Positions 29,246 through 47,276 are shown, counted from the first letter of the stretch. The stretch: 64,000 nt of DNA from Polyangium mundeleinium (GCF_028369105.1 NZ_JAQNDO010000001.1:1715711-1779710), one strand, 5' to 3'. Notes: generated from the sequence alone by a model not told the origin. Made by a program: numbers and translations.

Positions 29246-29384
29246 GATGCCGGGACTTTCGCGCGGACGAACCGCGCAGGAGCTTCGAGGCCCCAAAGCG
29301 TGCAAACCGTGCACGCAGCGCGTACACGGTTCGCACGTGAGGTGTGTGTGGAGCGCGCCACGAAAGCTGGCGCGCGCCTCGGCG

Positions 29385-29693: not shown

Positions 29694-29929
29694 CGTTCAG
29701 GCTCTCCGTCGGGGATGGATCGGAGCCTCACGTGGGGCCGGGAGCGGGAGGTCGCTGCGGGCGACCTGGAGCTCCGAGCGGGAAACGAACCACGTAAACG
29801 CTCGATCGAATCCGCGCGGGAGGGCCAGGCAGCACGCATGCCACGGCGGGAGCGGGCAGGGGGAGCGCACACGGCGCCGCGGGGATGTCCGCGGCGCCGT
29901 GCGAGGGGAGGATGCGAGAAGGCGGGGAG

Positions 29930-31471: not shown

Positions 31472-33910
31472 ATGGAAGTCACCTGCGAGCGCTGCGGCAC
31501 GGTGTACGACTTCGACGACGCTCTCGTCTCCGAGCGCGGCACCTCCGTGAAGTGCACGACCTGCGGGCACCAGTTCAAGGTGCGTCGCGCATCCGTGGGG
31601 ACGGTCCCCGACACGTGGGTCGTACGCACCGTCGACGGGCGCGAGATCGAGTTCTCCGCCCTGCGCGAGCTCCAGGGCGCGATCCACGACGGGAAGGTGA
31701 CCCGCGACGACGTGCTTTCCCGTGGCAACAGCCGGCCGCGCAGGCTCGGGTCGATCGCCGAGCTCGATCCGTTCTTCAACCGCATCGGCATGACGGTGCC
31801 CGGCACCGGGACGACGACGCCGCCGCCGCCGGCCGCGCGGACCCGAACGAGGACGCCCGCAGGCCTCGGGGGCGGGACGGCGCAGCCCCCGCGGCAAGAA
31901 GGATCGGTCGTGTTCGCGTTGCCCGGACGCCAGCAGCAGGCCCAAGCGGCTGCGGCGCCGCCCATGGCGATGGGCGGTGCGCTGCTCGGGCGTCGGCCGG
32001 CATCGGTGCGCCCGCCCGCGGCGGCCGGGGCCGACAAGGGCTCGGACATGCCGGCCCTCGCGGCGCCGCGTGTGCCGGGCGGGCTCGAAGAGCTGAACAC
32101 GATGGACGTCGTGGAGGCGCCCATCTCGACGCGGAACAACGGTGGCTTCGGGTCGCCGCCGCCGATGCGCGCGCAGGCCGGTTCGTCGCCGGACGAGCGG
32201 GGAGGGACGGTGGAGCGGATCAGCGCGCTTCCGCCGCCTCCGCCGCCGCCGCGCAAGCCCGCGGGTTCGTCACCGATGTTCCCGCCGCCGCCGTCGGAAG
32301 GGCCGCCCTTGCCGCGAAAAACCGCGTCGTCGTCGCCGATGTTTCCGTCGCCGGAGCCTCCGCCGCCGCCCCGAAAGGCCGCGGCGTCCGCGCCGATGTT
32401 CCCGCCGCCGGAGGCCCCGTCGCCGCCGCGAAAGGCCACGCCCGAGCCGCCGAACGTGCAGGAAGCGGGGCCTTCGAGCGGCGACGATCCGACGCTCATG
32501 ATGGAGCGGCCGCCGACGAGCGAAGGGCCGACGCTGATGATGGATCGTCCGCCGGCGCTCACGGCGGGCAAGGCGACGCCCGCGCCGCCGCGGGCCGAGG
32601 CAGCGAAGCCGATCTCCTCGAAGTCGCCGCCGGCGACGCCGCCGTCGAGCGGGCCGACGTCATTGCCGCCGTCGTCGGCGCTGCTGAACAGCGACGATGT
32701 GCTCTCGGTCTCGGGCGTGCCGCCGCGTCGTCCGCATGCAGCGCGCTGGATCGTGGGGGTTTTGCTGCTCGGCGCGGGCGCGCTCGGCGCGGTGATGGTC
32801 GGGCGCGAGTACTTGCCGAAGGGGAGCGGGGCGTCCGCGTCGACGCCAGGCGACGCGCGGCTCGGGGCGTTGCTCGATCAGGGCGATCGTGATCTGCGGG
32901 ATGGGGATCTCGACGCGGCGAACGAGTCGTACGTGAAGGCGAGCGCGATCGCGGACGCGGATGTGCGCGTGGCGGTGCGGCTCGCGCGCCTCGCGGTCGT
33001 GCGCGCGGACGTGGCGTGGCTCAAGGTGCGGCTGCTTGGCGCGTCGGATCCGGATCTGCCGAACGCGCGGCGTGAGCTCGATCTGGTGGTGGGGCGCGCG
33101 AAGCAGGCGGCGGACCGGGCGCAGTCGATCGCGGCGGCCGACGCGGACGTGGCGCGCTGTCGGATCGATGCGCTTCGCCTCGCGGGAGACGTGGACGGCG
33201 CGCGGAAGCTCGTCGCGACGCTGCCGAAGTCGACCCCGCAGGCGAGCGACGAGCTCTTGTTCGCGACGCTCGATCTGGCCGAGGCCGCGCCGGTGTGGGC
33301 GACGGTGATCGAGCGGCTGAGGGCCGCGGCGCGGGACGAGCAGAACCTCGGGCGCGCGCGGTCGATGTTGATCTACGCGCTCGCCCGATCGGGGGATACG
33401 GCCGGGGCGAAGGTCGAGCTCGACAGGCTCGCGGCGATGCCGAGGCCCCACCCGCTCGTGGCGTCGCTGCGCGCGTTCGTGGCGAGCGCGGAGGGCGCGA
33501 AGAAGCCCGAGGTCGAGGCCGCGAGCCTCAAGGTGGAGGCGGGGGACGACGCGCTGAAGTCTGCGATCGAGGCGATCCAGAAGGGTGAGCTCGACAAGGC
33601 CGAGCCCCTCTTGAAGGAGCTCGCGGAGAAGACGCCGAAGGACACGAAGGTGCTGAAGGCGCAGGGGGATCTCGCGCAGAAGAAGCGCGACCGCGCCGCG
33701 GCGATCCGGTTCTACGAGCAGGCCGTGGCCGCGGACAACACGAACCTGGATGCGGTCGCCGCGCTCGCGGATCTCCGGTGGGAGAACGGCGAACGCATGA
33801 CGGCGAGCACGCTCTACCGCAAGATCATCGAGAAGGGCGGCGACGCGAACCCGCACACGAAGCGCGCGAAAGAGCGGCTCGCCAAGTTCGCGGATTCCTG
33901 GGAGCCCTGA
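31472..33910 (+). CDS. Zinc-ribbon (MJ0042-type) + GYF-like domain + Pro-rich linker + TM helix + TPR-like C-terminal protein. The architecture resembles the gliding-motility protein GltJ (AgmX).
   Basis: The zinc ribbon reads MEVTCERCGTVYDF...KCTTCGHQFKV (CxxC...CxxC). A GYF/DUF4339-like block follows (TWVVRTVDGREIEFSALRELQGAIHDGKVTRDDVL). A long PPPPPP-rich low-complexity region comes next, then a TM helix (WIVGVLLLGAGALGAVMV), then about 330 aa of Ala/Leu-rich TPR-like repeats. Confidence 0.8.
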   Translation: MEVTCERCGTVYDFDDALVSERGTSVKCTTCGHQFKVRRASVGTVPDTWVVRTVDGREIEFSALRELQGAIHDGKVTRDDVLSRGNSRPRRLGSIAELDPFFNRIGMTVPGTGTTTPPPPAARTRTRTPAGLGGGTAQPPRQEGSVVFALPGRQQQAQAAAAPPMAMGGALLGRRPASVRPPAAAGADKGSDMPALAAPRVPGGLEELNTMDVVEAPISTRNNGGFGSPPPMRAQAGSSPDERGGTVERISALPPPPPPPRKPAGSSPMFPPPPSEGPPLPRKTASSSPMFPSPEPPPPPRKAAASAPMFPPPEAPSPPRKATPEPPNVQEAGPSSGDDPTLMMERPPTSEGPTLMMDRPPALTAGKATPAPPRAEAAKPISSKSPPATPPSSGPTSLPPSSALLNSDDVLSVSGVPPRRPHAARWIVGVLLLGAGALGAVMVGREYLPKGSGASASTPGDARLGALLDQGDRDLRDGDLDAANESYVKASAIADADVRVAVRLARLAVVRADVAWLKVRLLGASDPDLPNARRELDLVVGRAKQAADRAQSIAAADADVARCRIDALRLAGDVDGARKLVATLPKSTPQASDELLFATLDLAEAAPVWATVIERLRAAARDEQNLGRARSMLIYALARSGDTAGAKVELDRLAAMPRPHPLVASLRAFVASAEGAKKPEVEAASLKVEAGDDALKSAIEAIQKGELDKAEPLLKELAEKTPKDTKVLKAQGDLAQKKRDRAAAIRFYEQAVAADNTNLDAVAALADLRWENGERMTASTLYRKIIEKGGDANPHTKRAKERLAKFADSWEP

Positions 33911-35766
33911 TGAAAAAGAGGCGGGACCGACGTGTTCGTATAGGGGCGCTCGGCCTTTCAATCGCGGCGCTCGTGGTCGCGGGCGCGGGCTGCGAGGGGA
34001 GGCCGCGGAGCACCACGAACGCGCGGGTTTCGCCGGCGCTGAGCGGGCCGGCGGTGGTCGAGATCGATCTGTCGCGTGGGGCGCCCGAGTCGTCACAGGG
34101 TGGGCTTTTCGGCTCGTCGCGCGGACGCACGCACGCCGAGCTCGTGCAGGTGATCGGCGCGGCGAACGAGCGCGAGACGACGAAGGGGTTTTTCGTGAAG
34201 CTCGGGACCGCGGGGCTCGGGCTCGCGCGGGCGAACGAGGTCGGGCGCCTGCTCGCGTCGATCCGCAAGGCGAAGAAGCCCGTGGTTTGTCACGCCGACG
34301 ATCTCGGCAACGCGACGCTGCTGCTCGCGTCCATGGGCTGTGATCGCGTTTGGGTGAGCCCGGCCGGAGGCGTGGAATCGGTGGGCATCGCGGCCGAGCT
34401 CGTGTTCGGCAATCGCCTGCTGGAGAAGCTCCACGTCGAGGTGAACTTCCTGCAGGTCGGCAAGTACAAGGGCGCGCAGGAGCCGTTCACGCGCGACAGC
34501 GCGAGCCCCGAGGCGAGGCAGTCGGTCGAGGGCGCGCTGCGCGGGCTGCGCTCGGCGTGGCTGTCGGCGATCACGGAGGGGCGCGGCAAGCCCGAGCTCG
34601 CGGACCTCGTGGAGGATGGGCCGTTCGCGCCGGAAGAGGCGAAGGCGAAGGGGCTGGTCGACGAGATCGGGTACGCGGACGAGGCGCGCGAGGAGGCGAA
34701 GAAGCTCGCGGGCGCAGAGCGCGTGAGCGTGCGGTTCGGCGGAAGCGCGTCGCCGGAGCCGGTGTCGGGCGGGATCATCGACGTGATCCGCGTGCTCGCG
34801 GGGCCGGGCTCGGGCGGGGAGCCGCACGTGGCGATCGTGCCGGCGACAGGGGCAATCTCGATGGGCGGCGCGCCGTCGTCGCCGCTCGGTGGGAGCGACG
34901 GGATCAACGAGCGTGATCTCGGGAAGACGATCGCGCGGCTGGAGAAGGACGAGTCGACGAAGGCGGTGGTGCTGCGGATCGACTCGCCCGGCGGATCGGC
35001 GCTCGCGTCGGATCTTTTGTGGAAGCGGCTGATGAAGCTGCGCGGGGACAAACCGCTCGTCGTGTCGGTCGGGGGCATGGCCGCGAGCGGCGGGTATTAC
35101 CTGGCCTGCGCGGGGACGAAGATCGTCGCCGAGCCGACGAGCATCCTCGGGTCGATCGGCGTCGTGTCGGGAAAACTCGCCGTGGGCAAGACGCTCGCGG
35201 AGATCGGCGTGACGACCGAGACGATCGCAGCCGCGCCCGATCCGCTGAAGGCGAAGCGCGCGACGTACATGTCGCCGTTTCAGGGGTGGGACGAGCCGAC
35301 GCGGCAGAAGGTGCTCGGGTCGATGCAGTCGATCTACGATGTGTTCGTCCGGCGCATCTCGGAGGGGCGCGGGATGGCGGTCGAGAAGGTCGCCGAGAGC
35401 GCCGAGGGTCGAATTTTTGGCGGGGTCGAGGCCAAGGAGAGAGGCCTCGTCGACGAGCTCGGCGGGCTCGTGGACGCCGTGACGCTCGCGCGAAAGCTCG
35501 CGCATCTGCCGGATGATGCGCCGGCGGAGGTGGTGGGCGAGGGATCGGGGCTCCTTGATTTGCTCGAAGCCGCAGAGGATGGAGATGCGGGCGCGGCGCA
35601 GGAGAGCAAGGCCGCGAAGGCGGCGCGGCAAGCCGCCGTGGACGCTCTTTTGCCCGAGGTGGGCGCGCTCCTGCCCGAGGTCGCCCGATATCTGGGGTCG
35701 ATGGCGCCTTTCCTGTCGGGCGAGCGTACGCTGGCGGCCATGCCGTTCGGTCTGATCGTGCGTTGA
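33910..35766 (+). CDS. sppA: Signal peptide peptidase SppA (67K type, tandem S49 domains).
   Basis: A lipobox (VVAGAGC) is followed by two S49 ClpP-fold halves, with the catalytic-Ser region MAASGGYYLA and a Lys-containing block. The ATG overlaps the upstream stop (TGATG). Confidence 0.8.
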   Translation: MKKRRDRRVRIGALGLSIAALVVAGAGCEGRPRSTTNARVSPALSGPAVVEIDLSRGAPESSQGGLFGSSRGRTHAELVQVIGAANERETTKGFFVKLGTAGLGLARANEVGRLLASIRKAKKPVVCHADDLGNATLLLASMGCDRVWVSPAGGVESVGIAAELVFGNRLLEKLHVEVNFLQVGKYKGAQEPFTRDSASPEARQSVEGALRGLRSAWLSAITEGRGKPELADLVEDGPFAPEEAKAKGLVDEIGYADEAREEAKKLAGAERVSVRFGGSASPEPVSGGIIDVIRVLAGPGSGGEPHVAIVPATGAISMGGAPSSPLGGSDGINERDLGKTIARLEKDESTKAVVLRIDSPGGSALASDLLWKRLMKLRGDKPLVVSVGGMAASGGYYLACAGTKIVAEPTSILGSIGVVSGKLAVGKTLAEIGVTTETIAAAPDPLKAKRATYMSPFQGWDEPTRQKVLGSMQSIYDVFVRRISEGRGMAVEKVAESAEGRIFGGVEAKERGLVDELGGLVDAVTLARKLAHLPDDAPAEVVGEGSGLLDLLEAAEDGDAGAAQESKAAKAARQAAVDALLPEVGALLPEVARYLGSMAPFLSGERTLAAMPFGLIVR

Positions 35767-35812
35767 GCTCACCGCTCGTCCGCGGCCTCTGGTAGCCTGG
35801 CCGCGCCCTTCC

Positions 35813-38800
35813 ATGAGCTATTTTTCCGCGACGGATGAAGACGCCGCGCCGGTCGCGCGGCGAGCCACCATGCCGCCGCCCGAGCTCGCCGATCGATCGG
35901 CGCCCACCTCGGCAGGTTCCCTCGTGCTGGAGGCGAACCGCACGGAAGAGCCGATCCAGCGGCATCACGGCCCACGCGCGGAGATCGCCCACCTGCGCGG
36001 CGTGGTCGCGCGTTGTCGAGAGGCCGGCGACGTGGCCGGCGAGCGCGAGGCAGCGTCGACGCTGGCGCGGCTGCTCGCGTCACGCGAGACGGAGCTCGAC
36101 ACGGCCGTGAACGTGGCGCGGCGCGCGCTCGAACTCGGAGAGGACGAGGCGCTGCGTTCGGAGCTCGCCGAGTGGCTCGCAGGGCTCGGGGAGCCGATCG
36201 CAGCAGCGGATGTGCTGCGCGCGTCGTGTGATCCATCGCGGCCCGCTTCGTCGGCGCAGGCGCTCTTGAAAATCGCGGTGCTGCTCGCGCGAGGCGCCAA
36301 CCCGAAAGGCGCGGCGGAGGCGCTGAAGGAAGCGGCGGCGTTCGATTCGAGCCAGCCGATGCCGCTCGAGCTCGTCGGCACGATCGCGGCGTGGGCGCAG
36401 GACGCGATCCCGAAGGCGGACGCGGCGGCAGGGTATCTGACGGCGGCGGCGCGGCACGAGGCGCTCGAGGACGCGGACAGCGCGCTCGAGGATCGGCTGC
36501 GTGCGTTCGAGATCGCGCCCGAAGACGAGATGGCGGCGAACACGATGGTCGACGCCCTCGCCGCGCGCGGCGCCGCAGGCGCGGCCGACGAGGCGCTGCG
36601 TGATCATGCGCTCGCCGCCTTCCAGACGAACCGGTACCGCGCGCGGCAGGTGCACCTGCGCCGCGTGTCGCGGGCGCTCGACGAGGGGAACGCGGCGCGC
36701 GCGATCGCGGCCGTGCTCGACGCGGGGATCGTGGCCGAGGTCGAGAGTGATCTCGGGCTGCTCGCGGATCGCGCCGTCGCGCTTGCGTCGCTCGACGGGA
36801 TCGCTTCGGTGCGGCGTGAGCTCCGGCAGAAGGGCGGGAGCATCGCGTCGATCGCGGCGCGCGCAAAGGGTTCGGAGGTCGCGGCGGCGGCGTTGCTCCA
36901 GGCGACGCTCGGCGCGTCGAAGGAGCGCGAGCGCGCCGATGCGCTCGTGCAGATCGCGGCGGAGACGAGCGGAGAGATCAGCGCGAGCCTGCTCGCGGTG
37001 GCCGCGGAGGGCTACCTCGGGCTCGGGATCGCGTCGCTCGCGCGGAGGACCGCGGAGGACGCGTGCCTCACGGATCCCGGGTCGGCGCGCGCTCTGTCTG
37101 CGCTGGCGAAGGCGACGATCGCGATGCCGGACCTCGACGCGGCGATGGCGGTCGAGGGCGGCGCTTCGACGATGCTGATCCGCTCGTCGCTCTGCGAGGG
37201 GCTCGCGAAGTCGTTCGAAGCGGTCGGGGAGATGGCGCTCGCGGTGACGTGGACGCAGCGCTGGCTCGCGCTTCGTCCGGGATGCCCGAACGCGATGCGC
37301 GAGCTCGTCCGGCTTGCTTCGCAGGCGTACGATCCGGACCGGCTGGAGGACGCGCTCGGGTGGGTGCTCGCGCAGCCGCGGCCGCTCGACGACATGGCGA
37401 GCCTCTTCGGCGACGCGCTCGCGCTGCTCTTCGAGCTCGATGCGCCGCGGGCGATCGACGTCGGGAGGCGTGCGCTCGACATGTACGGTCCGCGCGTGCC
37501 GGGGCTGCGAGGTCGGCTGCTCGCGATGAGTGATCGCGCAGAGGACGTGGCGCTCGGAGTGATCTTGCTGGAGCGGCTCGTCTCGGCGGACACGAAGAAC
37601 GAGCGCACGATCGAGCGGCTCTTCGATCTGGCGCAGCGGCGCGCAGTCGCGGAGGACTGGGACGGCGCGGCGGCGGAGCTCGCGCGCGCGGCGGCGAAGG
37701 GCGCGGAGTCGCGGCACCTGCACGAGCACCTCGACGCGCTCGACGACAAGATGCAGCAGAGCGGCGCGTCGCTCGGCTCGGACGGGCTCGTCGCGTTCGT
37801 CGAGGCGAGGGTGCACGCGCTCGGCGATCTCGTGGACGGGCCGGAGCAGTCGGCCCTCGAGAACCTGTCGAGCGGGCTCCGGGATCTCGGGGCCGTGCGC
37901 TGGGATCTCGCGCAGGATTCGGCAGGCGCGGAGGATGCATTCTGGCGGGCCGCGGTGGCCGCGCCGCGCGGCGGGATGGAGCGGTACGCGCGGGACCTCG
38001 TGACGTTCGCGGGCCCTGCGGCCGCGCTCGACGCGATCGTGCGGCGCTCGGAGACGCTCACGTCCGAGCCGCGCCGTCGTGCGAGCCTGCTCATCGAGGC
38101 AGCGAACCTGGCCGTCGCGAACGGGCTGCCGAAGCGCGCGCTCGAGATCGGCGCGAGCGCGATCCAGATCGACCCGTCGCGCGCCGAAGCGGTGGCGATC
38201 GTCGAGCGATCCTCCGCCGTGGAGGGCGGCATCGACGTGCTCGATCGCACGTACGACGTGCTCGCCGCAGCCGCCCTCGGTTGTTACGGGCGGCGCGCGG
38301 CGCATTACCGCGGCGCGCGTCAGCTCGAACGGAGAGGTGCCATCGAAGCGGCGCTCCGCCACGCCGTCGCGTGTTTCGAGGCCGTCCCCTCCGAGGGCAC
38401 GTCGTACTTCTTGATGGCGCGCCTCGCGGAGCGCGGCGGCAACCCGACCGAGGCCATCCGCGCGATCGAGCGCGTCGCCGAGTCGGTCGACGGGGGCGTG
38501 CGGGCCGCGTGGCTCAAGCGCGCCGCCTCGCTCGCGAAGGCTGCGGGCGAGGGCAGCCGCATGCGTTTCGACCTGCTCCTGCGCGCCCTCTCGGCGCGGC
38601 CGGACCTCGGGACCGTCGAGGAGATCGGCGAGGCGCTACGCAAGCTCATCGCGTCCGTGAGCCACGTCGGGCCGCTCGTCGCCCGCTTCGAGACCGCGGC
38701 CCTCGCCGCGCTGAAGCGCACCGACGGGCCGGATGGCGCGCGTGCGGCCGTGGCGCTCGCCAGGGTCGCGCTCGGCATCCTCGGCGCACACGCGTTTGGG

Positions 38801-41800
38801 CTTTCGCTCGTCGAGCGCGCCGTGGCCGCAGACGGCGACATCGACGAGTACGACACGCTCGTCGAGCTTGCGCCCGTGGCCGCCGCGGGCGACGCGGCGG
38901 CGACCCGCGCCTTTCTCGAATCCTTGCTGCTCGCCGTCGCGAAGCCGTACGCCAGCGTCGGCGTCGCGCTCCTTCGCCTCGGCGGCAAGCTCGCGCATGC
39001 GCTCGGTGATCCGCTGATCACGGGCACGCTCTTCGTGCAGGCGGCGCGCCGCGATCCGGAGGACGAGCTCCTCGTGAGCGACGCCGACGCGGCCGTGTTC
39101 GCCTCGGGCGACGCGGCGCTGGCGCGTGACCTCGACGCGGCTGTCGCTCCGGATGCCCGGCTCGCGGCCCTGCTCCATGTCGCCGAGCGCAAGGAGCGCG
39201 AGGGCAACTTTGCCGAGTCGATCGAGACGCTCGAGCGCGCCTTGCGATCCCCGAGCATCACGCCCGAGCAACGCGAGGCCGCGCTCTCCAGCATGCGCCG
39301 GCTCTTCGTCCTGTCCGAGCGCGCGAGCGAGGCCGAGGCCGTGCTCGCCTCCGAGCTCGCGCGCCAGGACCTCGGTCCGATGTCCCGCGTGCGCATCGCG
39401 GTCGACCTCTCGACCATGCTCGCGGGCCGCGGCGAGGACGCGGCCGCGCTCGACGTCCTGAAGCGCATCCTCCAGGACAGCGAGCCGACCGACGAGCTCC
39501 TCGCGACCACGTTGCGCCTCGCGCGCCGCACGGGCGATCGCCCCGCGCAGGTCGCGCTCTTGAACCTCCAGCTCCAGCGAACCGACGACGCCGTCGCGCG
39601 CGCGGCCATCCTGCGTGAGCTCGCGGCGCTGCTCGAAGCGCTCGGTGATCACAAGGCCGGCGTTGCGCACCTCAAGGCTGCGAGCGAGCTCGCGCCCGAC
39701 AACGAGGAGGCCCTCGAAGGGCTCGAAGCACACGCGGCCTCGCAGGGCGATCACGCCGCTGTCGCCGACATCCTTGGCAAGCGTATCGCCGCTGCATCGA
39801 CGCCCGATCTTCGCCGCACGCTCCGCCTGCGCCGCGCCGCCGTCCTCGAGCAGCGCCTCGGCCGCCTGGAGGACGCCTGCGCCGAGCTCGACGCGCTCCT
39901 CGCGGAGACGCCCGACGATCCGAGCGCGCTCCGCTTCCTCGCCGACATCCACGAGCGACTCGGATCGCCCCTCCGGGCTGCACCCCTCTGGCAGCGCCTC
40001 GGCGAGCTCTCCGCGAAGACCGACGAGCGCGCCGAGTACGGCATCCGTGCCGCGAACGACTGGCTCGCGGGCGGCAATGCCCAGGCCGCGCGCAACATCC
40101 TGGAGAGCATCGCGCCCATCGCCGCGCGGGACGCCGTGATCGAGCTGCGCGTCGCGATCGCGCGCCACCAGGGCGATGCCCGCACCCTCTCCGAAGCCCT
40201 CGATCAGCTCGCCACCGCCTCCCGCGAGCCCGCGGACAAACGCGCGAGTTACCTCGTCGAGGCGGCGCGCGCCTCCTCCTCGACCGGCGACGAGGCCACC
40301 GCCCTCGACCGCGTCCGCCGCGCCGTTCGTCTCGCTCCGCACTCGGCCGAGGCTGTCCTCGAAGCGCGCCGCCTCGAATACCGCGCGCGTGGCGGCGGCA
40401 CGCCTCGCGAAGCGCAACACGCCATCGACGAGCTCATGCGCATCGCCGAGCACCTCACGCCCGAGCAGATGGAGCTCCAGGCGTTCCTGCTCGCCGAGGA
40501 GCTCGACGTCATCCAGGGCGGCGGCGCCGGCATGCGTGAGCTCTCGCGCCGACATGCCGCGTTCGGCCCGGCTCCGCTCATCGCCCTCGGCATGGCCGAG
40601 CGCCTCGTGCGCAACAAGAACTTCGACGCGGCCTTGCCCCTCTTCGAACGCGCCTTGAGCGGCGACCTCCGTGGCCTCCGCAGCCGTGGCCGTGTCGCCC
40701 TCGCCGCGGCGGATGCGGCCCTCTCTGCGGGCCAGCTCGAGACCGCCTCGCGCCTCCTCGACACGGCCGCCGTCGAGCCCGACACCCGCCCGATCGCGAT
40801 GCGCAAGAAGCTCGAGTTCGTCGCGGGATACGGCGAGCCCGAGGCCGCGCGCGCCGCCCTCTTCGACCTCATCCGCCAGAGCGCCGGCCTCGATCGCGCC
40901 CGCTTCCTCTACCAGCTCGGCCGCCTCGTCGTCGCCACCGATCCCGACGAGGCCATCCGCCTCTACGCCGACGCCTTCCCGCTCGCCGCTCCCGATCGCA
41001 ACCTCGCCGCGCAGATCGCCGAGGAGCTCGCCCATGCGCGGAAGCCGCGCCTCATCGTCGAGCCCTCCGAGCCGCCGCCTCCTCCTCCTCCGCCCCACGC
41101 GCCCATCGCCGACGACGGCCAGGCTCTCGTCTTCGACCTCGAAGAGGCCTTCGACAACGCGTTCGACGACGCGGTCGACGACGACGACGACATCCCGATC
41201 CCCCTCGCGGCGAGCGCGATCCGCTCCATGCCGACGGGCCTCCGCCCGCCGCCGCCCGCGGAAAAGCCTCCTCCCGCGCCGATCGTCGAAGAGCCTCCGC
41301 CGCCCGCGCAGCCCCGTGCTCGCACCGCGCCTCCGGCCCCGGCCCCGGGCGGCGGACCTGCGCGCGAGACGGCGCTCTTCGAGCAGCTCATGGCCGGCTC
41401 GTACGACGCGGGCGAGCGCCTCGTCGAGCTCTACGGCGCGAACGCCGAGGCGCGCTCGCGTGACCTCCTCGTCGTCCGCAAGCACCAGGCGTCGCTCCGT
41501 CCCGGCGATCGAACCACGCTCCAGAAGCTCCACGAGGCTGCGCTGCTCGACCGCAACGGCGCCTATGCCCGCGCCGTCGACCACGTCCTCGCCGGCTTCG
41601 ATCCGGCTGGCCGCGCCGTCGCGCCTCCTGCGCTCTCGGCCCTCGCTTCTGCGCCCGAGCTCGTCCTCGCGCTCCTCTTCCGCAACGTCGAGAGCCCCAT
41701 CAACGAGGCCCTCGCCATCACCTGGGAGACCGGCCGTTACCGCCGCGAGCCGAGCCACTACGGCCTCACCGGCGCCCTCCGCGTCCAGCCTGGCGCGCCC

Positions 41801-42511
41801 ACCGTCCTCGGCGACGTGTGGGGCTCCGTCACGCGTGTTTTCGGCGCTGCCCGCACCCCGCTCTTCCATCGCCGCGCGCCCGCCGGCGCCCCGAGCCAGG
41901 CCGCCGCCCTTGGCGTCCAGGTCGCGCTCCTCGCGCCGCCGGCCGTCGTCCTTTCCGGCGAGATCCGCGAGGAGACCCCGGAGCTTCGTTACCTCCTCGG
42001 CGCCTCCATCGCCGGCGCCATGCCCGAGCACGTCCTCGTCCGCCTCCCCGAGGAGCACCTCCTCACGCTCATCGAGGCCCTCCGCGCCGCCTTTGGCCCC
42101 GTGGGCCCCACCGGCGGCACCGACCCCGGCGTCGCGCGCCTTGGCCAGGACCTCTGGCAAATCGTCCCACCCCGTGGGGACCGCCGCCTCCGCGAGATCT
42201 TCGCCCAGCCCGACGGCATCACCTACGAGGCCGCCATGGAAAGCGCCCGCCGCGCCGCCCGCCGCGCCGGCCTCTTTGCGAGCGGCGACCTCCCCACGGC
42301 GCTTCGCCTCGTCGTCGCCGAGCTCAAGCTCGAGCTCGACGCGCCTCTCACCGCCGAGGGGGGCCTCGCGCGGGCTTGCGCGGCGCACCCGGCCCTCGCC
42401 GATCTCGTTCGACTCGCCACGCGTAGCGAGTATGCCGAGGCCCGCTTCCGCGCGGCGCCTTCCACCGAAGGGAACAAGAACGGACCGCCGAGCCGCTTTC
42501 GTGGCACTTGA
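35813..42511 (+). CDS. Giant (2232 aa) cytoplasmic Ala/Leu-rich helical-repeat (TPR-like) protein with an internal poly-Pro/acidic segment. Possibly an AgmK/GltI-like scaffold.
   Basis: The 6.7-kb ORF is continuous with high GC3. It has no signal peptide or TM helix. TPR-like WLAGLGEP...-type repeats occur throughout. Around residue 1750 the segment reads SEPPPPPPPPHAPIADD...DDAVDDDDDIPIP...PPPPAEKPPPAPIVEEPPPPAQP. The antisense ORFs across it are Arg-rich artefacts. Confidence 0.8.
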   Translation: MSYFSATDEDAAPVARRATMPPPELADRSAPTSAGSLVLEANRTEEPIQRHHGPRAEIAHLRGVVARCREAGDVAGEREAASTLARLLASRETELDTAVNVARRALELGEDEALRSELAEWLAGLGEPIAAADVLRASCDPSRPASSAQALLKIAVLLARGANPKGAAEALKEAAAFDSSQPMPLELVGTIAAWAQDAIPKADAAAGYLTAAARHEALEDADSALEDRLRAFEIAPEDEMAANTMVDALAARGAAGAADEALRDHALAAFQTNRYRARQVHLRRVSRALDEGNAARAIAAVLDAGIVAEVESDLGLLADRAVALASLDGIASVRRELRQKGGSIASIAARAKGSEVAAAALLQATLGASKERERADALVQIAAETSGEISASLLAVAAEGYLGLGIASLARRTAEDACLTDPGSARALSALAKATIAMPDLDAAMAVEGGASTMLIRSSLCEGLAKSFEAVGEMALAVTWTQRWLALRPGCPNAMRELVRLASQAYDPDRLEDALGWVLAQPRPLDDMASLFGDALALLFELDAPRAIDVGRRALDMYGPRVPGLRGRLLAMSDRAEDVALGVILLERLVSADTKNERTIERLFDLAQRRAVAEDWDGAAAELARAAAKGAESRHLHEHLDALDDKMQQSGASLGSDGLVAFVEARVHALGDLVDGPEQSALENLSSGLRDLGAVRWDLAQDSAGAEDAFWRAAVAAPRGGMERYARDLVTFAGPAAALDAIVRRSETLTSEPRRRASLLIEAANLAVANGLPKRALEIGASAIQIDPSRAEAVAIVERSSAVEGGIDVLDRTYDVLAAAALGCYGRRAAHYRGARQLERRGAIEAALRHAVACFEAVPSEGTSYFLMARLAERGGNPTEAIRAIERVAESVDGGVRAAWLKRAASLAKAAGEGSRMRFDLLLRALSARPDLGTVEEIGEALRKLIASVSHVGPLVARFETAALAALKRTDGPDGARAAVALARVALGILGAHAFGLSLVERAVAADGDIDEYDTLVELAPVAAAGDAAATRAFLESLLLAVAKPYASVGVALLRLGGKLAHALGDPLITGTLFVQAARRDPEDELLVSDADAAVFASGDAALARDLDAAVAPDARLAALLHVAERKEREGNFAESIETLERALRSPSITPEQREAALSSMRRLFVLSERASEAEAVLASELARQDLGPMSRVRIAVDLSTMLAGRGEDAAALDVLKRILQDSEPTDELLATTLRLARRTGDRPAQVALLNLQLQRTDDAVARAAILRELAALLEALGDHKAGVAHLKAASELAPDNEEALEGLEAHAASQGDHAAVADILGKRIAAASTPDLRRTLRLRRAAVLEQRLGRLEDACAELDALLAETPDDPSALRFLADIHERLGSPLRAAPLWQRLGELSAKTDERAEYGIRAANDWLAGGNAQAARNILESIAPIAARDAVIELRVAIARHQGDARTLSEALDQLATASREPADKRASYLVEAARASSSTGDEATALDRVRRAVRLAPHSAEAVLEARRLEYRARGGGTPREAQHAIDELMRIAEHLTPEQMELQAFLLAEELDVIQGGGAGMRELSRRHAAFGPAPLIALGMAERLVRNKNFDAALPLFERALSGDLRGLRSRGRVALAAADAALSAGQLETASRLLDTAAVEPDTRPIAMRKKLEFVAGYGEPEAARAALFDLIRQSAGLDRARFLYQLGRLVVATDPDEAIRLYADAFPLAAPDRNLAAQIAEELAHARKPRLIVEPSEPPPPPPPPHAPIADDGQALVFDLEEAFDNAFDDAVDDDDDIPIPLAASAIRSMPTGLRPPPPAEKPPPAPIVEEPPPPAQPRARTAPPAPAPGGGPARETALFEQLMAGSYDAGERLVELYGANAEARSRDLLVVRKHQASLRPGDRTTLQKLHEAALLDRNGAYARAVDHVLAGFDPAGRAVAPPALSALASAPELVLALLFRNVESPINEALAITWETGRYRREPSHYGLTGALRVQPGAPTVLGDVWGSVTRVFGAARTPLFHRRAPAGAPSQAAALGVQVALLAPPAVVLSGEIREETPELRYLLGASIAGAMPEHVLVRLPEEHLLTLIEALRAAFGPVGPTGGTDPGVARLGQDLWQIVPPRGDRRLREIFAQPDGITYEAAMESARRAARRAGLFASGDLPTALRLVVAELKLELDAPLTAEGGLARACAAHPALADLVRLATRSEYAEARFRAAPSTEGNKNGPPSRFRGT

Positions 42512-42541
42512 TGGAGGGGCTCGCGCGGCGACCGTTACGCC

Positions 42542-43309
42542 GTGCCCCTGCCCGAAAAGGAGGTGCCCTTGCTCGTCGCTCGTCCGCTCTCGCCCGCCCT
42601 CTCGCCCGCGCTGGAGGCTCTCCACGACCTGACAGCGCTGTCAGGGGTGCGGCGCCGTCCGTCTTTGCCTGAAGGCCATTTCCTGGGCCTCGGTGCGCTG
42701 GCCCGAAGATCGCTTCAGGCGTTCTTGCTCGCCGTGCTCGCGCCGGGTTGCCTCGTCACCGCGGAGCCCGTCACGTACGAGCCTCAGCAGACACCGCCGA
42801 TTCTCGTCGCCTCGGGCCTCGACCCCGATCCGCGCTCCATCTTGCTCGTGGGCGGCGACCTCGGCTTGCCCGAATTTCCGATCGCCGCGTCGGTCGCGTC
42901 CGAGGACGCGGGTGAATCCGTCAAGGTCGCCCTTTACGTCGATTACGGTGAAATGAACCCCGTCAACCAACCGTTTCGGTTTTCATTTCCGAATTTCCAG
43001 GAGCTACCGGCGGCGACCCTGGCGGATGGCCCACGCCCGCTCGTGGGGGTTCGTTGGAACTCCAAGGTTTATCCGCTCGATCCGGGCTGCCATCGGCTCA
43101 CGCTCGTGGTCACGCACGAGTTCGACACGCGGACGGGCTGCCCCAAGGATCTCCGGGATTCAAGCCAGATCACCTGGCAATTTCGGCAATGCGGCGTGGG
43201 GGACTGTCCTCCGATTCTGGAAAACTGCCCCTCCACCACAGCTAGCTGTCCGCTCGATCCCACGGCGGTGACGAGCGACATGAACGACGCCGGGACCACG
43301 GGAGGTTGA
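42542..43309 (+). CDS. Hypothetical lipoprotein (255 aa).
   Basis: The lipobox is LAVLAPG|C. Composition is unbiased, with a Cys-rich C-terminus (CGVGDCPPILENCPSTTASC). It lies 31 nt downstream of the giant gene. Confidence 0.55.
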   Translation: MPLPEKEVPLLVARPLSPALSPALEALHDLTALSGVRRRPSLPEGHFLGLGALARRSLQAFLLAVLAPGCLVTAEPVTYEPQQTPPILVASGLDPDPRSILLVGGDLGLPEFPIAASVASEDAGESVKVALYVDYGEMNPVNQPFRFSFPNFQELPAATLADGPRPLVGVRWNSKVYPLDPGCHRLTLVVTHEFDTRTGCPKDLRDSSQITWQFRQCGVGDCPPILENCPSTTASCPLDPTAVTSDMNDAGTTGG

Positions 43310-45087
43310 CCTTGAAACGCGCCTTCTTCTTGACTTCAACTATCTTCCTGCTAACAGCCGTGCCCGCCCTCTCTGGATGCTTCGTGCTCGGGGGGGCCGA
43401 CGCGGAAGCCGTGAATGCTTGCTCCTCCGACGAGGACTGCGAAGGCGGCGGCGTCTGCGCCAGCGTCGACGGCCTCCAGACCTGCGTCGGGACCAAGGCC
43501 GATCTCCCCGGGCTCATCCTCGAAGTGCGCCCCACGGCCGAGGCGAACTCTGGCGCCAACACGCCCTACCTCGTGCCTTTCGGCGGCGAGGGCTTCGTCG
43601 CGCAGTCGAGCGCGGGCCTCGTCGTCGATCACGACATCGCGCTCTCGCACGTCGTCGTCTCGCCGATCGAGCTCTTCGTCGACTACGACTACAAGGGCTG
43701 CCCCGTCTCGCCCGAGGGCAAACTCGAAGCGGATTTCACCTTCTACCGCGACGCGCAGCACGCGGGCCTGCCCGATCACGAGGCCAAGGCCGTCATCCAG
43801 CCGGGCAGCACGAACGCCTACTCGGTCGAGATCCCACCCGGCATCTACGACGTGCACGTCGTCCCGCGCGCCCCCGAGAACTGCCCCGCGCCTCCGCCGC
43901 CGCCCATGTACTACCGTGGCATCGACCTCTCGCAGGGCGGCAAGATCGACCTCCACCTCTCCGCCGCGCCGCGCGTCATCTCCGGCAGCATCGCCTTCCC
44001 CGAGGGCAAGGACTTGAACGGCTGGTCGATCGAGGTCGTCGAGCCCAAGCACGGCATCCCCGTCTCGCGCACGCAGGTCCTCACGGTCGATCCGCCCTTC
44101 GCGCTCTTCACGACCTACAACCTCGAATACTACTGGGACTTCAGCCTCGAAAGCTCGCCCATCCTCCGCCTCCGGCCGCCGCCCGACGACCCCGACGCGC
44201 CCAAGTTCTTCTGGCAGGTCGCCTCGCTCAGCCCCCTCAACCCCGACAGCAAGAACATCCAGGCCGACCTCACCCTCATCGACCTCGACGCCGTCGGCCG
44301 CAGCGTCATGTCGACCGTCGTCGATGCCCACGGCGCGCCCGTCGTCGCGACCGTCTCCTTCCGCAGCCTCGAGCTCTCCGGCAACGCCTCGAACAGCGCC
44401 ATCTACAGCGCCGTCGTCGACACCGACACCGAGGGACGCTTCACCGCGCTCCTCCCGCCCGGCAAGTACCGCGTCACCACGCACCCCACGTTCGACCTCA
44501 CGAAGGCCGTCACCACCGAGGACGGCTTCGAGGTCCCCGCCGATGGCGACTGCGTCTGCGGCAAGGGTTTTACGGTCCGGGACAAGTCCGTCGTCTCCGG
44601 CGAGGTCGTTCTGCCGAACGGCAGCCCGCTCTCGTTCGGCTCCGCCTCCGTCTTCCCCTCGCGCACGCCTGCGCGCCCGTACCTCTCGCGCAGCCTCCTC
44701 GCCGACGCGCCTGCCTCGCAGCCCATGTCGACGCCGCTCGGCTTCGTGGGCGAGTTCTCCTTGCTCGCCGATCCGGGGCTCGCGGATCTGGTCGTCATCC
44801 CGCCGCCCGACTCGCTCTACCCGTGGATCGCGAATCCGCAGGTCAAGATCCTCGTCGGCCAGCCCTTCGACTTCAACACGCTCGTCCTCCCGTACCCCGT
44901 CGTGCTCCGCGGCGAGGTCCGTGATCCTCTTGGCAAGATCGTACCGAACGCGACCGTCCGCGCGTGGATGCCCGTCACGGCCTCGGGCACCCAAGAGACC
45001 GTGGTGATTCAGATTGCGGAGGGAGCCACGGATTTCGCGGGCCGCTACAAGTTGCCTCTCGCTCCGTCCCTCGCGCTTTCGAGGTAG
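43306..45087 (+). CDS. Hypothetical lipoprotein (593 aa) with carboxypeptidase-regulatory-like / Ig-like beta domains.
   Basis: The signal peptide and lipobox read TAVPALSG|CFV. The N-terminal region is Cys-rich, and repeated PPGxYxV blocks occur (IPPGIYDVHVVP, LPPGKYRVTTHP). The ATG overlaps the upstream stop. Confidence 0.65.
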   Translation: MTLKRAFFLTSTIFLLTAVPALSGCFVLGGADAEAVNACSSDEDCEGGGVCASVDGLQTCVGTKADLPGLILEVRPTAEANSGANTPYLVPFGGEGFVAQSSAGLVVDHDIALSHVVVSPIELFVDYDYKGCPVSPEGKLEADFTFYRDAQHAGLPDHEAKAVIQPGSTNAYSVEIPPGIYDVHVVPRAPENCPAPPPPPMYYRGIDLSQGGKIDLHLSAAPRVISGSIAFPEGKDLNGWSIEVVEPKHGIPVSRTQVLTVDPPFALFTTYNLEYYWDFSLESSPILRLRPPPDDPDAPKFFWQVASLSPLNPDSKNIQADLTLIDLDAVGRSVMSTVVDAHGAPVVATVSFRSLELSGNASNSAIYSAVVDTDTEGRFTALLPPGKYRVTTHPTFDLTKAVTTEDGFEVPADGDCVCGKGFTVRDKSVVSGEVVLPNGSPLSFGSASVFPSRTPARPYLSRSLLADAPASQPMSTPLGFVGEFSLLADPGLADLVVIPPPDSLYPWIANPQVKILVGQPFDFNTLVLPYPVVLRGEVRDPLGKIVPNATVRAWMPVTASGTQETVVIQIAEGATDFAGRYKLPLAPSLALSR

Positions 45088-45156
45088 GCGCGCGTGCTGT
45101 CTCGCGCCTGCGTCCCGGGGGTACACGCTCGCCTCGGTCCGGGATAGGCTGGAGGC

Positions 45157-46320
45157 GTGGCGGAGTCCGACACCGGTGGTAAGGACGAGACGGCGCGCGG
45201 ACGAGGGTCATCGCAGGAGGCGAGCCGCGGGCCCTTGGCCGACAAAGAGAGCCTGCGGATCGACGTCGAGCAGGCGTTGCGACGCCCGACCGATCGAGAC
45301 CTCGCGGGCGTCCTCCATGAGGTCTCGAACGCGCTCACCGTGGTGCTTGGATGGATCGATCGCGCGCGTGGCGAGATCGACTCTCTCCCCACCGTCGAGG
45401 ACGCGCTCGCCATCGCGGCATCACGCGCGCGTCACGCAAGGCAGATCGTTCGTCGCGCCATCGGCGCCGACGTACCGGACGATGCGCCCGCGTCGGTCGC
45501 GACGATCCTCGCCGAGGCGGCGAAGGGCTGCGAGCCCGAGGCCAAGCGTGGCGGCGTCGAGCTCCGCACCTCGCTCGACCCTGCGCTCGAAGCTGCGCAC
45601 CTGCCGGGCACCTCCGTCATCTTGCAGATCCTCACGAACCTCCTGCTGAACGCCGTCGCCGTCTCGCCATCGCGTGGCGCCGTGCTCCTCGACGCGACGC
45701 TCGACGGACCTGACGACGTCGTCTTCGGCGTGACCGACGAAGGCCCCGGCGTGCCTGTCGAGCGCCGCGCGAACTTGCTCGACGCGGGCGTCACCACGCG
45801 CGCGGGCGGCGCGGGCATCGGCCTTCGTTACGCGGCGGCGCTCGCGCGCGAGTCGGGTGGTTCGCTCTTGCTCGTGCGGGCCGAACCTTCGGCGCGGTTC
45901 GAGCTGCGCTGGCCTCGCCGTCCTTCCTCGCCGCCTGCGCCGCCGCACTCGAACCGCAAGCCGGCGATGGTCCTTGCGGGCCAACGTATCCTCGTCGTCG
46001 AGGACGACGACGCCGTCTTCGATCTGCTCGAAGCGGCGCTCGCGGCGCGTGGCGCGACCATCGTGCATGTGCGTAGGCGCGCTGAGCTCGCGGGCGCCTT
46101 GAAGACCGGCCGCGTCGACGCGGCTCTCTGCGACCTCTCGCCGTTTGGCGCGGACGTGCACGGCGCGCTCGACGAGATCCGCGAGACGAACCCTTCGGTG
46201 CGGATCGTCCTCATCTCGGGCAACGTGCGTGACCTGTCGGGTTTGCCCGCGTCCTTCGAGGTCAAGGCCGTGCGCAAGCCCTTCGAGATCGGCGAGATTG
46301 TCGCAGTGCTCACGGCATGA
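45157..46320 (+). CDS. Hybrid histidine kinase (HisKA-like - HATPase_c - receiver).
   Basis: The H-box reads LHEVSNALTVVLGW. The ATPase G-boxes are VTDEGPGVP and GIGLRYAAA. The C-terminal receiver has ILVVEDDDAVFDLL...AALCDLS. Confidence 0.75.
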   Translation: MAESDTGGKDETARGRGSSQEASRGPLADKESLRIDVEQALRRPTDRDLAGVLHEVSNALTVVLGWIDRARGEIDSLPTVEDALAIAASRARHARQIVRRAIGADVPDDAPASVATILAEAAKGCEPEAKRGGVELRTSLDPALEAAHLPGTSVILQILTNLLLNAVAVSPSRGAVLLDATLDGPDDVVFGVTDEGPGVPVERRANLLDAGVTTRAGGAGIGLRYAAALARESGGSLLLVRAEPSARFELRWPRRPSSPPAPPHSNRKPAMVLAGQRILVVEDDDAVFDLLEAALAARGATIVHVRRRAELAGALKTGRVDAALCDLSPFGADVHGALDEIRETNPSVRIVLISGNVRDLSGLPASFEVKAVRKPFEIGEIVAVLTA

Positions 46321-46352
46321 CGGACGACCTTGGGGGCCTCGAAAAAAAGTGG

Positions 46353-46380
46353 TTGACATTGGGGGCGAAGCGGGTAGGTT
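46353..46380 (+). promoter_or_regulatory. Putative sigma70-type promoter of the tRNA-Leu gene (TTGACA-N16-TAGGTT).
   Basis: ttgacattgggggcgaagcgggtaggtt lies in a locally AT-richer stretch about 25 nt upstream of the tRNA 5' end. Confidence 0.4.
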
Positions 46381-46407
46381 CCGTCGCCTCGAAGCAAGCG
46401 GTTCCGA

Positions 46408-46492
46408 GCGAAGGTGGCGGAATTGGCAGACGCACTAGCTTGAGGTGCTAGCGGGTAACACCGTGGGGGTTCAAGTCCCCCCCTTCGCACCC
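46408..46492 (+). tRNA. tRNA-Leu (anticodon GAG), class II with a long variable arm.
   Basis: The acceptor stem gcgaagg/ccttcgc is 7 bp. The D-arm is tggcggaattggcagacgc, the anticodon stem-loop is ctagc-ttGAGgt-gctag, and the T-arm is ggggg-ttcaagt-ccccc with discriminator A. It is near-identical in layout to E. coli tRNA-Leu. Confidence 0.9.
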
Positions 46493-46537
46493 CGAAGCGG
46501 CCCACACGGGCCGCGAGCCTGGTAAAGAAAGTGAAAA

Positions 46538-46568
46538 GGGCCGGTCACCGTAAGGTGCCGGCCTTTTT
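46538..46568 (+). terminator. Rho-independent terminator downstream of tRNA-Leu.
   Basis: The hairpin gggccggtcacc-gtaa-ggtgccggcc is followed by ttttt. It lies inside the artefactual N-terminal extension of track ORF 46531..47139. Confidence 0.6.
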
Positions 46569-46587
46569 CGCGTTTGGGGGTTTCGAC

Positions 46588-47139
46588 ATGTCCTTGCGTC
46601 TCCTGCGTCCGGCGTCCTTGTTCCTTGCGCTCGTGCCCCTCGCGCTCGTCGCTTGTGCGGCGGCCCCGCCGCCCGCGGAGGCCCCGACGACGGCGGTTGA
46701 CGTCGCGGCCGAGCCTGCTCCGCCGCCGCCCCCGTCGGCCACGGCATCGGCGAAGATCGCGTCGGATGACCTCCGGACCCCGGACGACGCCGAGACGGAG
46801 CTTGCTCGCTGGGAGATCTCCTTCCTCAACGTGATGGTCGTGGCGGACGAGGCAAAATCCTCCGCGGGGGGGGCTGCGCCGCCAGCGGCGCCCACGGATG
46901 CAGCGCGCAAGGCGCCCACCAAGCCCGTCACGCCCGAGTCGATGTCGGCGACGGGCAGCGAGGATTCGCCCTGCCATGGCGCGTGCCGCGCCTACGCCTC
47001 GATGAAACGTGCGGCCACGCGCCTCTGCGATCTCGCTGGAAAAGAGGACGATCGTTGCGCGGCTGCGCAGGCGCGCATCGATCGCGCGAACGAACGGCTC
47101 AAGGCGGCTTGCCCGCGGTGCGAGAGCCTTCGCGACTAG
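46588..47139 (+). CDS. Hypothetical lipoprotein (183 aa) with a Cys-rich C-terminal domain.
   Basis: The start is MSLRLLRPASLFLALVPLALVA|C (lipobox). A Pro/Ala-rich linker follows, and the C-terminus reads CHGACRAYASM...CDLAGKEDDRCAAAQARIDRANERLKAACPRC. Confidence 0.6.
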   Translation: MSLRLLRPASLFLALVPLALVACAAAPPPAEAPTTAVDVAAEPAPPPPPSATASAKIASDDLRTPDDAETELARWEISFLNVMVVADEAKSSAGGAAPPAAPTDAARKAPTKPVTPESMSATGSEDSPCHGACRAYASMKRAATRLCDLAGKEDDRCAAAQARIDRANERLKAACPRCESLRD

Positions 47140-47276
47140 TCAATTTTCCGTCGCTACATTCTCGTCGGACGATTCCAATCGTTGCTCTCGCTTTCGGGGG
47201 TTCCTAGGATTGCATTCGGACGCGCCCTCCCGTGCGTGTCCCCACGTCCTCGGACTTCCCAAAGCAAGGGTCAACG

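Follow-up and report, generated by a model that had tools for sequence, protein, structure and literature searches.

Whether part of a gliding machine is encoded by six adjoining genes is the question raised by a 64,000-nt stretch of the Polyangium mundeleinium genome (the window; coordinates are counted from its first letter). Between positions 31472 and 46320 of this window, whose G+C content is ~70%, gene calling based on G+C at third codon positions (GC3) and a listing of open reading frames give six plus-strand genes, one fewer than the seven counted in an earlier note on the same DNA. They encode, in order, an 812-aa zinc-ribbon protein, here called the adaptor, an SppA protease, a 2232-aa giant, a small and a large lipoprotein, and a hybrid histidine kinase. 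The earlier note had likened the first and third of these proteins to GltJ and GltI of the Glt gliding machinery of Myxococcus, and had proposed a variant or new module built on a GltJ-like core. As far as sequence comparison reaches, the cluster shares domain classes and design logic with GltJ and GltI, yet is a distinct, non-Glt system. Its anatomy, the intact catalytic residues of its members, the conserved order and tight spacing of its genes, its restriction, within the genomes sampled, to the Polyangiaceae and its non-identity with Glt are demonstrated in the comparisons described here. As an explanation of the whole, a tentative preference goes to an uncharacterised scaffold and signalling system of the Polyangiaceae that would span the envelope and is built from two modules (A and B), usually joined though sometimes apart.

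Comparison with GltJ, GltI and other zinc-ribbon proteins

The verdict that the cluster is not Glt follows from the short spacer between the zinc ribbon (ZnR) and GYF-like domain of the adaptor, its helical periplasmic part of tetratricopeptide repeat (TPR) type, profile scores, the separate loci of the two systems in Sorangium So ce56, and a neighbourhood devoid of agl and glt genes. The adaptor (31472-33910, + strand) is a bitopic inner-membrane protein, 96% identical to a P. sorediatum protein and a member of a family widespread in the Polyangiaceae. It begins with an MJ0042-type zinc ribbon of the form CxxC...CxxC (aa 1-37; 31472-31582), recognised, as in the earlier note, through Pfam Zn_ribbon_4 (2.6e-13) and TIGR02098 (29.5 bits, cut-off 20.9). 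The GYF-like block said to follow it (aa 48-105; 31613-31786) stands as a probable fold but not as a sequence family: Pfam GYF_2 gave no match to these residues even at E<=10, but an AlphaFold2 (AF2) model built with 28 homologues has a beta-beta-alpha-beta-(beta)-alpha arrangement at pLDDT 86-92, and its PDB matches in Foldseek, ZitP aside, are almost all GYF domains (GltJ 7z3c, GIGYF1/2, Smy2). All of these GYF E-values are weak, 0.09 or worse (7z3c itself: probability 0.95, E 0.09), and the adaptor family profile gave no match to the GltJ GYF domain; from the model, a GYF-like fold is probable.

Beyond this head lies a disordered cytoplasmic linker (24% Pro) that carries a conserved short linear motif, EGSVVFALP (aa 143-151; 31898-31924). 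The family consensus of the motif is (R)TEGSVAIPLP, ~40 residues after the GYF-like domain, and AIPLP recurs at the same position in 73 of 118 family members, within an otherwise unconserved region. A single transmembrane (TM) helix (aa 423-445; 32738-32806) lies in a conserved segment and is preceded by the Arg-rich sequence PPRRPHAAR, with the N-terminus placed in the cytoplasm by the hydropathy scan. The periplasmic remainder (32807-33907) consists of a helical domain (aa 446-680) extended at aa 681-812 by TPR_19/TPR_14 repeats (for TPR_19, Pfam gives 5e-13 at aa 739-799), and matches TPR-type families only (TPR_19, TPR_14, PrsT, BepA, YbgF-type). The Pro-rich linker, single TM helix and C-terminal TPR region described earlier were all recovered. 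Among 106 family members, conservation is highest in the ZnR-GYF head, at 55-81% identity (55-80% in its GYF-like domain), and drops to 8-18% in the Pro-rich region; so conserved a head implies a conserved cytoplasmic partner. Conservation of the TM helix and of aa 450-680 is family-wide, and the TPR_19 tail (aa 681-812) is found in only about half of the family, a subclade.

GltJ (AgmX, MXAN_4862), according to Attia et al. 2024 (PMC11135422) and other literature, is a 674-aa protein with a zinc ribbon at residues 1-42, a 95-residue linker, a GYF domain at 138-222 and a TM helix at 385-405. Its periplasmic part is a disordered stretch followed by a C-terminus resembling the TonB C-terminal domain (TonB-CTD), which binds GltD. 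The adaptor and GltJ are alike in their N-terminal MJ0042 zinc ribbon, in a Pro-rich or disordered cytoplasmic region, in a single TM helix with a cytoplasmic N-terminus, in a GYF-type fold (predicted for the adaptor) that lacks the eponymous G, Y and F residues, and in the proximity of the gene to one encoding a very long TPR-like protein. The domain class named in the earlier note (MJ0042 zinc ribbon, GYF-like predicted fold, Pro-rich region, one TM helix) is thus the right one. The architecture set out there, with its periplasmic TPR region, is nevertheless not that of GltJ. Between the end of the zinc ribbon, at about aa 37-40, and the beginning of the GYF-like domain, at aa 48-49, the adaptor has a gap of ~10 residues in place of 95; the periplasmic part is helical and TPR-like, whereas that of GltJ is disordered with a TonB-CTD-like end, and no TonB_C match was found in the 812-aa protein; and the partner gene encodes SppA, with no glt or agl context. 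The accompanying statement that the zinc ribbon and GYF domains of GltJ contact MglA and MglB misplaces the contacts: in PMC11135422 it is the linker that binds MglA-GTP and the zinc ribbon (motif L86-T107), and the GYF domain binds a Pro-rich sequence of AglZ; MglB does not figure in the accessible passages.

Against the NCBIfam equivalog model for GltJ (NF033761, gliding_GltJ) the adaptor scores 20.2 bits where the cut-off is 450 (E=2.7e-4), with residues 1-48 alone contributing. The Glt comparator was a frameshift-rich metagenomic gltI-gltJ contig (L006; ENA contig_89823, 8.7 kb). It holds a gltI-like gene, represented by its 3' part, and a gltJ that the gene caller split into at least five pieces, with a zinc ribbon 78% identical to that of M. 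xanthus GltJ. Whereas the adaptor matched GYF_2 nowhere, a control GltJ GYF fragment from this contig (L006:5727-6302) matched it at 1.6e-19 and matched positions 122-218 of the GltJ model at 3e-44 (152 bits). The match of the 812-aa protein to L006 lies in the zinc ribbon only (E=0.012).

The giant (2232 aa; 35813-42511, + strand) is 100% identical to a P. mundeleinium protein annotated 'tetratricopeptide repeat protein'. Its N-terminal ~1745 aa (35813-41047) are presumed to form helical repeats; the TPR matches are scattered and sub-threshold, and a PDB sequence search returned only a designed TPR (E=0.0065). A Pro-rich, acidic, disordered linker (aa 1746-1850; 41048-41362) leads to a C-terminal domain of ~380 aa (41363-42511), modelled by AF2 as five TPR-like helices and then an alpha/beta subdomain (pLDDT 89, pTM 0.87), for which no Pfam family and no PDB match were found. 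Since hydropathy shows neither a signal peptide nor a convincing TM segment, the giant is presumably cytoplasmic. It is 45-76% identical to 25 diverse homologues along its whole length, the linker excepted. A profile of the C-terminal domain retrieved 751 representative proteins among 1.84 billion, and in the best 150 matches the domain is always C-terminal in proteins of 2,000-2,670 aa or fragments, with no protein of the ~4,000-aa size of GltI among them.

The linker of the giant is 30% Pro and 17% Asp/Glu and includes DDDDDIPIPLA. The PPPPPPPP/acidic segment pointed out in the earlier note is present (aa 1754-1761; 41072-41095; acidic run after it), and the Pro run is specific to Polyangium. 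A linker rich in Pro (12-45%) is common to all giant homologues and varies in sequence and length. The motif PPPLP is found in 26 of 90 linkers and is repeated in giants outside the Polyangium clade; the linkers of that clade contain DIPIPL, with an acidic run followed by DIPIPLA (41180-41210 in the window, aa ~1790-1800). The adaptor motif and the linker motifs DIPIPL and PPPLP have the core (I/A)P(L/I)P in common and, on this resemblance, could compete for one site; their co-occurrence is inconsistent across genera, Sorangium giants lacking the motif.

GltI (AgmK, MXAN_4863) is a 4,132-aa TPR protein of the cytoplasm that ends in a helical domain, and the giant resembles it in being very large, of TPR type, presumably cytoplasmic and endowed with a distinct helical C-terminal domain. 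As the GltI counterpart that it had been taken for, however, the giant fares poorly. It is about half the size (2232 against 4132 aa); a tblastn search of the giant against L006, in effect a comparison with the C-terminal ~1700 aa of one frameshifted GltI orthologue, gave E>2; and a hidden Markov model of the giant family matched the GltI C-terminal region of L006 at 10.8 bits, in generic TPR-like positions only. GltI is also proposed to bind the FHA domain of GltG, and no FHA/TonB gene like gltG is found here.

These results bear on the first alternative explanation, that the cluster is a divergent or paralogous focal-adhesion (gliding) module whose adaptor would dock MglA-, MglB- or AglZ-like factors and whose giant would play the role of GltI. 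Such a module would account for the domain classes held in common with GltJ (zinc ribbon, GYF-like fold, Pro-rich region, single TM helix), for the appearance of gliding_GltJ among the adaptor's matches (residues 1-48 only), and for a very long protein of the same general build as GltI, and the host is a gliding myxobacterium. It is very unlikely all the same, given the profile scores, the missing 95-aa ZnR-GYF linker and TonB-CTD-like C-terminus, and the generic TPR level at which the giant meets GltI. Among the predicted genes scanned in the 64-kb window none is an agl or glt gene (no aglRQS, no gltA-K), which, with 20.2 of 450 bits, also tells against a variant module on a GltJ-like core; the lipoproteins and the kinase have, as the earlier note recognised, no Glt counterpart. 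In Sorangium cellulosum So ce56, Luciano et al. 2011 give a glt cluster at sce2906-2921, where gltD-G adjoin the GltI homologues sce2920 and sce2921 (1,774 and 2,081 aa), and aglRQS at sce2991-2996, and list no homologue for GltJ; the So ce56 homologue of the giant lies elsewhere, at 12.14 Mb (L039), with zinc-ribbon, SppA, lipoprotein and kinase neighbours. A further observation, in PMC11135422, that ZnR-GYF proteins do not correlate with MglAB or AglZ outside the Myxococcales, is not directly applicable, the host being within that group.

The adaptor fits a broader class. ZnR-GYF proteins are described in Attia et al. 2024 (PMC11135422) as common in myxobacteria, the order with the zinc ribbon N-terminal to the GYF domain being reported mainly from myxobacteria and planctomycetes, and those outside Glt are proposed there to be transmembrane switch modules with ligands other than MglA and AglZ. 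Membership is by sequence for the zinc ribbon of the adaptor and at fold level only for its GYF domain, which are followed by a TM helix and a periplasmic domain. With the class the adaptor shares the order of ZnR and GYF, a C-terminal membrane module and conserved operons with envelope proteins; it differs in its very short ZnR-GYF spacer and in a conserved motif that comes after, not before, the GYF domain. No published description was found of an adaptor family with a conserved periplasmic helical domain, an SppA partner, a Cys-rich lipoprotein as neighbour and frequent linkage to a module of giant, lipoproteins and kinase.

The closest structural match of the zinc ribbon is the zinc finger of ZitP (2nb9; Foldseek E=0.017, TM-score 0.70 on the target; phmmer E=0.002), and its sequence match to the GltJ zinc ribbon (7zok, E=1.4e-3) is no better than that to 2nb9. 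In Caulobacter the ZitP zinc finger binds the polar organiser PopZ, and a hub for polarity or cell organisation can be envisaged in which a ZitP-like head would tether giant and kinase to a particular place in the cell, with the envelope proteins as cargo. The ZitP match, the extreme conservation of the head and the build of the giant, a helical scaffold with a disordered tether, would suit such a hub. It is very doubtful nonetheless: ribbons of the MJ0042 type are a generic feature found in great number in Myxococcota, and the window has no PopZ-like gene. The adaptor has the 40-residue zinc ribbon alone in common with ZitP, the rest being unrelated.

Order, spacing and distribution of the genes

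The adaptor and SppA genes overlap by 4 nt (ATGA), as read in the sequence, and SppA is separated from the giant by 46 nt. The spacer between the giant and the small lipoprotein is 30 to ~150 nt, dependent on the start of the latter (~135-150 nt with a GTG or TTG start); the small and large lipoprotein genes overlap by 4 nt or leave a gap of 2 nt, by start choice; and 69 nt lie between the large lipoprotein and the kinase. An upper limit of 47 nt on the spacers, as stated in the earlier note, thus holds between SppA and the giant and fails before the kinase, and of two start-stop overlaps reported there, that of adaptor and SppA is present and that of the lipoproteins exists only if the large lipoprotein starts at 43306. 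A tRNA-Leu(GAG) gene (46408-46491, + strand; ARAGORN; Rfam tRNA, 54.7 bits) forms the 3' boundary of the cluster; the RNA family search gave none besides it, and a check of the window gave no defence-system match. No informative promoter or terminator signals were found.

One genome per GTDB species was scanned, giving 131 species with a giant homologue, and the best 80 loci were examined. All 80 come from Polyangiaceae/Polyangiales or from unclassified myxobacterial or delta-/proteobacterial metagenome-assembled genomes (MAGs), the genera represented being Polyangium, Sorangium, Byssovorax, Chondromyces and Minicystis, and as far as sampled the cluster is restricted to the Polyangiaceae. Neighbourhood look-ups gave the identical six-gene order in Chondromyces crocatus and one MAG, and a tblastn comparison of the six window proteins with the giant loci (64 or 63 loci assessable) gave it in Polyangium, Sorangium and Chondromyces apiculatus. 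In the MAG L005 the adaptor, SppA and giant genes are followed by the end of the locus, and Minicystis rosea and another MAG have only the giant, the two lipoproteins and the kinase. Giant, large lipoprotein and kinase stand in this order at 50 of 64 loci; the adaptor-SppA pair is directly upstream of the giant, on the same strand, at 44 of 63, and neither gene is there at 18. At most other loci ~50-250 nt separate the tblastn matches of SppA and giant. The earlier view of a genuine same-strand, envelope-related cluster with an order conserved in related genomes is borne out by this neighbourhood comparison, in which the arrangement is repeated in dozens of species.

The cluster is best read as two modules, because each stays grouped where the two do not adjoin: Module A, comprising a divergent Cys-rich lipoprotein, the ZnR-GYF adaptor and SppA, and Module B, comprising the giant, the two lipoproteins and the kinase. 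In a Minicystis sp. the adaptor-SppA pair and the divergent Cys-rich lipoprotein are found together, away from the giant, and on a more distant contig an adaptor homologue is followed ~1 kb downstream by an S49 peptidase, with no giant nearby. Linkage of A and B is frequent and probably ancestral, but dispensable. A single apparent fusion of SppA and giant on a metagenome contig (2,989 aa; L004 8724-17693) has lost the SppA stop and reads through the spacer in frame; it probably reflects a recent mutation or a fault of assembly or sequencing, and not a domain fusion.

The Cys-rich lipoprotein (~369 aa; 29930-31038, - strand; MKRLSLLGF...LLAGC) falls outside the interval given in the earlier note. 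It has no Pfam match, and its identity to its positional counterparts in Chondromyces (L001), Minicystis (L087) and the MAG L005 is 56-65%; its N-terminal Cys-rich part recurs at two further loci (L004 and L088), and it is the constant immediate neighbour of the adaptor gene. It is one of a set of upstream genes (24334-31038) that are syntenic with Minicystis (L087 4534-9524) and Chondromyces (L001 2902-5154), the others being a DHH-family protein, a divergent response regulator and a YtxH-like protein (29385-29696, - strand).

SppA (619 aa; 33907-35766, + strand) is of the 67K type with two S49 domains (Peptidase_S49 1.1e-63), and scores 224 bits with TIGR00706 (cut-off 155) and 270 bits with TIGR00705, below its equivalog cut-off of 311. 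Its alignment with E. coli protease IV (3bez, E=8e-47) includes the catalytic Lys (GKYK) and Ser (GGMAASGGY), so that the identity proposed earlier is secure, and its N-terminus is a membrane anchor or a lipobox-like AGAGC. With the dyad intact and such an N-terminus, SppA should be an active periplasmic protease, membrane- or lipid-anchored. Tandem S49 domains, the Lys/Ser dyad and an N-terminal membrane anchor are features of E. coli SppA/protease IV (3bez/3bf0) as well. The window protein differs in falling below the TIGR00705 cut-off, in being perhaps lipid-anchored, and in its translational coupling to a ZnR-GYF adaptor, a coupling that to our knowledge is not known for E. coli SppA.

In both lipoproteins of Module B, recognised as such in the earlier note, the lipobox Cys is conserved. 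The small one (42542-43309, + strand; lipobox ...LAPGC) has an uncertain start, GTG at 42647 or TTG at 42665 fitting the signal peptide better than 42542; when it is aligned with its positional counterparts at four loci, the lipobox Cys and the GCH of its GCH(T/R)xT motif prove invariant, and no Pfam or NCBIfam match was found. The large one (43306 or 43312 to 45087, + strand; MKRAFF...ALSGC), likely to start at 43312 after GGGAGG, has an N-terminal Cys-rich knot and then CarboxypepD_reg-like beta-sandwich domains (Pfam CarboxypepD_reg 4.3e-7, below cut-off). Its alignment shows conserved Cys residues, the invariant lipobox Cys and the motif DTDxxGRF...LPPGxY, and no PDB relative was found by sequence.

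The last gene encodes a sensor-less, soluble hybrid histidine kinase (387 aa; 45157-46320, + strand), with HATPase_c (1.2e-11) and Response_reg (3.4e-7) above their cut-offs and a weak HisKA match. An N-terminus of ~45 aa is followed by DHp (H54), CA (N, G1 and G2 boxes) and REC (D326), and 58 orthologues conserve LHEVSN (H54), NLLLNA, DxGPG, GGAGIGL, EDD, D326 and RKPF, in agreement with the hybrid kinase of the earlier note. Hydropathy gave no TM segment and no sensor domain was found; lacking an input domain, the kinase must be controlled by protein contacts. In a Polyangiaceae MAG (L055 14598-18235), the genes for the two Module B lipoproteins and the kinase, still downstream of that for the giant, are inverted as a block and behave as a unit.

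The separability of A and B gives substance to a further explanation, namely that they are two functionally independent units, one for SppA proteolysis and the other made of giant, lipoproteins and kinase, which are neighbours through inherited synteny. The first unit would consist of SppA, a bitopic regulator or adaptor and the Cys-rich lipoprotein, and would serve proteolysis of signal peptides or envelope proteins; in Bacillus subtilis, SppA is controlled by a co-transcribed membrane protein, YteJ. The adaptor-SppA pair without a giant in Minicystis sp. and on the distant contig, the retention of Module B without that pair at 18 of 63 loci (those of Minicystis rosea and Byssovorax among them), the confinement of gene overlaps to the adaptor/SppA (ATGA) and small/large lipoprotein junctions, and the synteny of unrelated flanking genes would all be expected of independent units. 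Same-strand adjacency at 44 of 63 loci is less easily accommodated, since it includes the most divergent giants (45-55% identity; L064, L068, L078, L082) and so argues for an ancestral, repeatedly retained linkage; nor was a terminator-like site found between SppA and the giant, a weak test. Two independent units are the main rival to the preferred reading, though a somewhat less likely one.

A tentative envelope-spanning scaffold

Under the preferred reading, an envelope-spanning scaffold and signalling system, the adaptor would join a periplasmic assembly (its own helical domain, SppA and the lipoproteins) to a cytoplasmic platform. The ZnR-GYF head might bind short Pro-containing motifs, either its own of the EGSVAIPLP type or those in the tether of the giant, and serve as a switch in the manner of GltJ. 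The giant, in turn, could scaffold the hybrid kinase, the state of the envelope being converted into a phosphorelay output. The logic would be that of the GltJ/GltI/AglZ cytoplasmic platform, yet in a separate system. Pro-rich tethers in all giants, a complete catalytic set in the kinase and the SppA dyad are in keeping with this scheme.

Several points weigh against it. The proposed contacts are inferred. Module A does not adjoin B at 18 of 63 loci and is also found without a nearby giant, so that coupling is not obligatory, and Module B alone has no membrane-spanning component to join its cytoplasmic and periplasmic members. The linker is the least conserved part of the giant, and Pro motifs are not universal in it, which makes it a poor fit as ligand of a very conserved head, and the GYF assignment of that head consists of a predicted structure and Foldseek E-values of 0.09 or worse. 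Finally, synteny between Polyangium and Minicystis extends for ~7 kb more upstream and takes in unrelated genes (DHH, response regulator, YtxH); conserved order within the family is thus weak functional evidence alone.

A more specific form of the scaffold can also be framed, as a second, Glt-independent 'focal-adhesion-like' or envelope-surveillance platform, built around the C-terminal domain of the giant, in which the adaptor, SppA and up to three lipoproteins would reversibly dock the giant and kinase through competing EGSVAIPLP and DIPIPL/PPPLP motifs; in this detail it is improbable. If the coupling of the modules is real, the GltJ-type ZnR-GYF 'molecular switch' would be a reusable adaptor, rewired here to SppA, lipoproteins, a giant scaffold and a hybrid kinase. 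The giants themselves are a large family for which no published description was found (751 representative clusters); their C-terminal domain is predicted with confidence and has no relatives in Pfam or the PDB, and the family is conserved throughout a bacterial group valued for natural products and complex multicellular behaviour. Genes of this kind in Polyangium, Sorangium and Chondromyces should not be annotated as gltJ or gltI orthologues.

Composition and other genes of the window

About halfway along the giant gene (~38 kb) the GC skew, until then positive, becomes negative and stays so for ~16 kb more (window ~36000-54000), with the maximum of the cumulative skew near 37-38 kb. The genes remain on the plus strand through the change, which could reflect the Ala/Arg/Pro-rich composition of the giant or a switch related to replication.

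Elsewhere in the window, a 1,322-aa protein without a Pfam match is slightly overlapped by the next gene, for an outer-membrane transporter of the FadL/TodX type (6348-11815). An FHA-domain sigma-54 activator (FHA, AAA and HTH_8) directly followed by a Ser/Thr protein kinase (12077-15019) is likely to be a kinase-FHA-enhancer-binding-protein signalling pair typical of myxobacteria. Just past the tRNA gene lies a 202-aa Ala/Pro-rich lipoprotein (46531-47139; LALVAC), followed at 47232-49649 by an 805-aa protein with weak thermolysin/fungalysin matches (M4/M36, FTP propeptide). At 58266-60164 is a multihaem c-type cytochrome, with MtrC/MtrF-like matches slightly under the Pfam cut-offs (best 28.2 against 30 bits), which is unusual in an aerobic soil myxobacterium.

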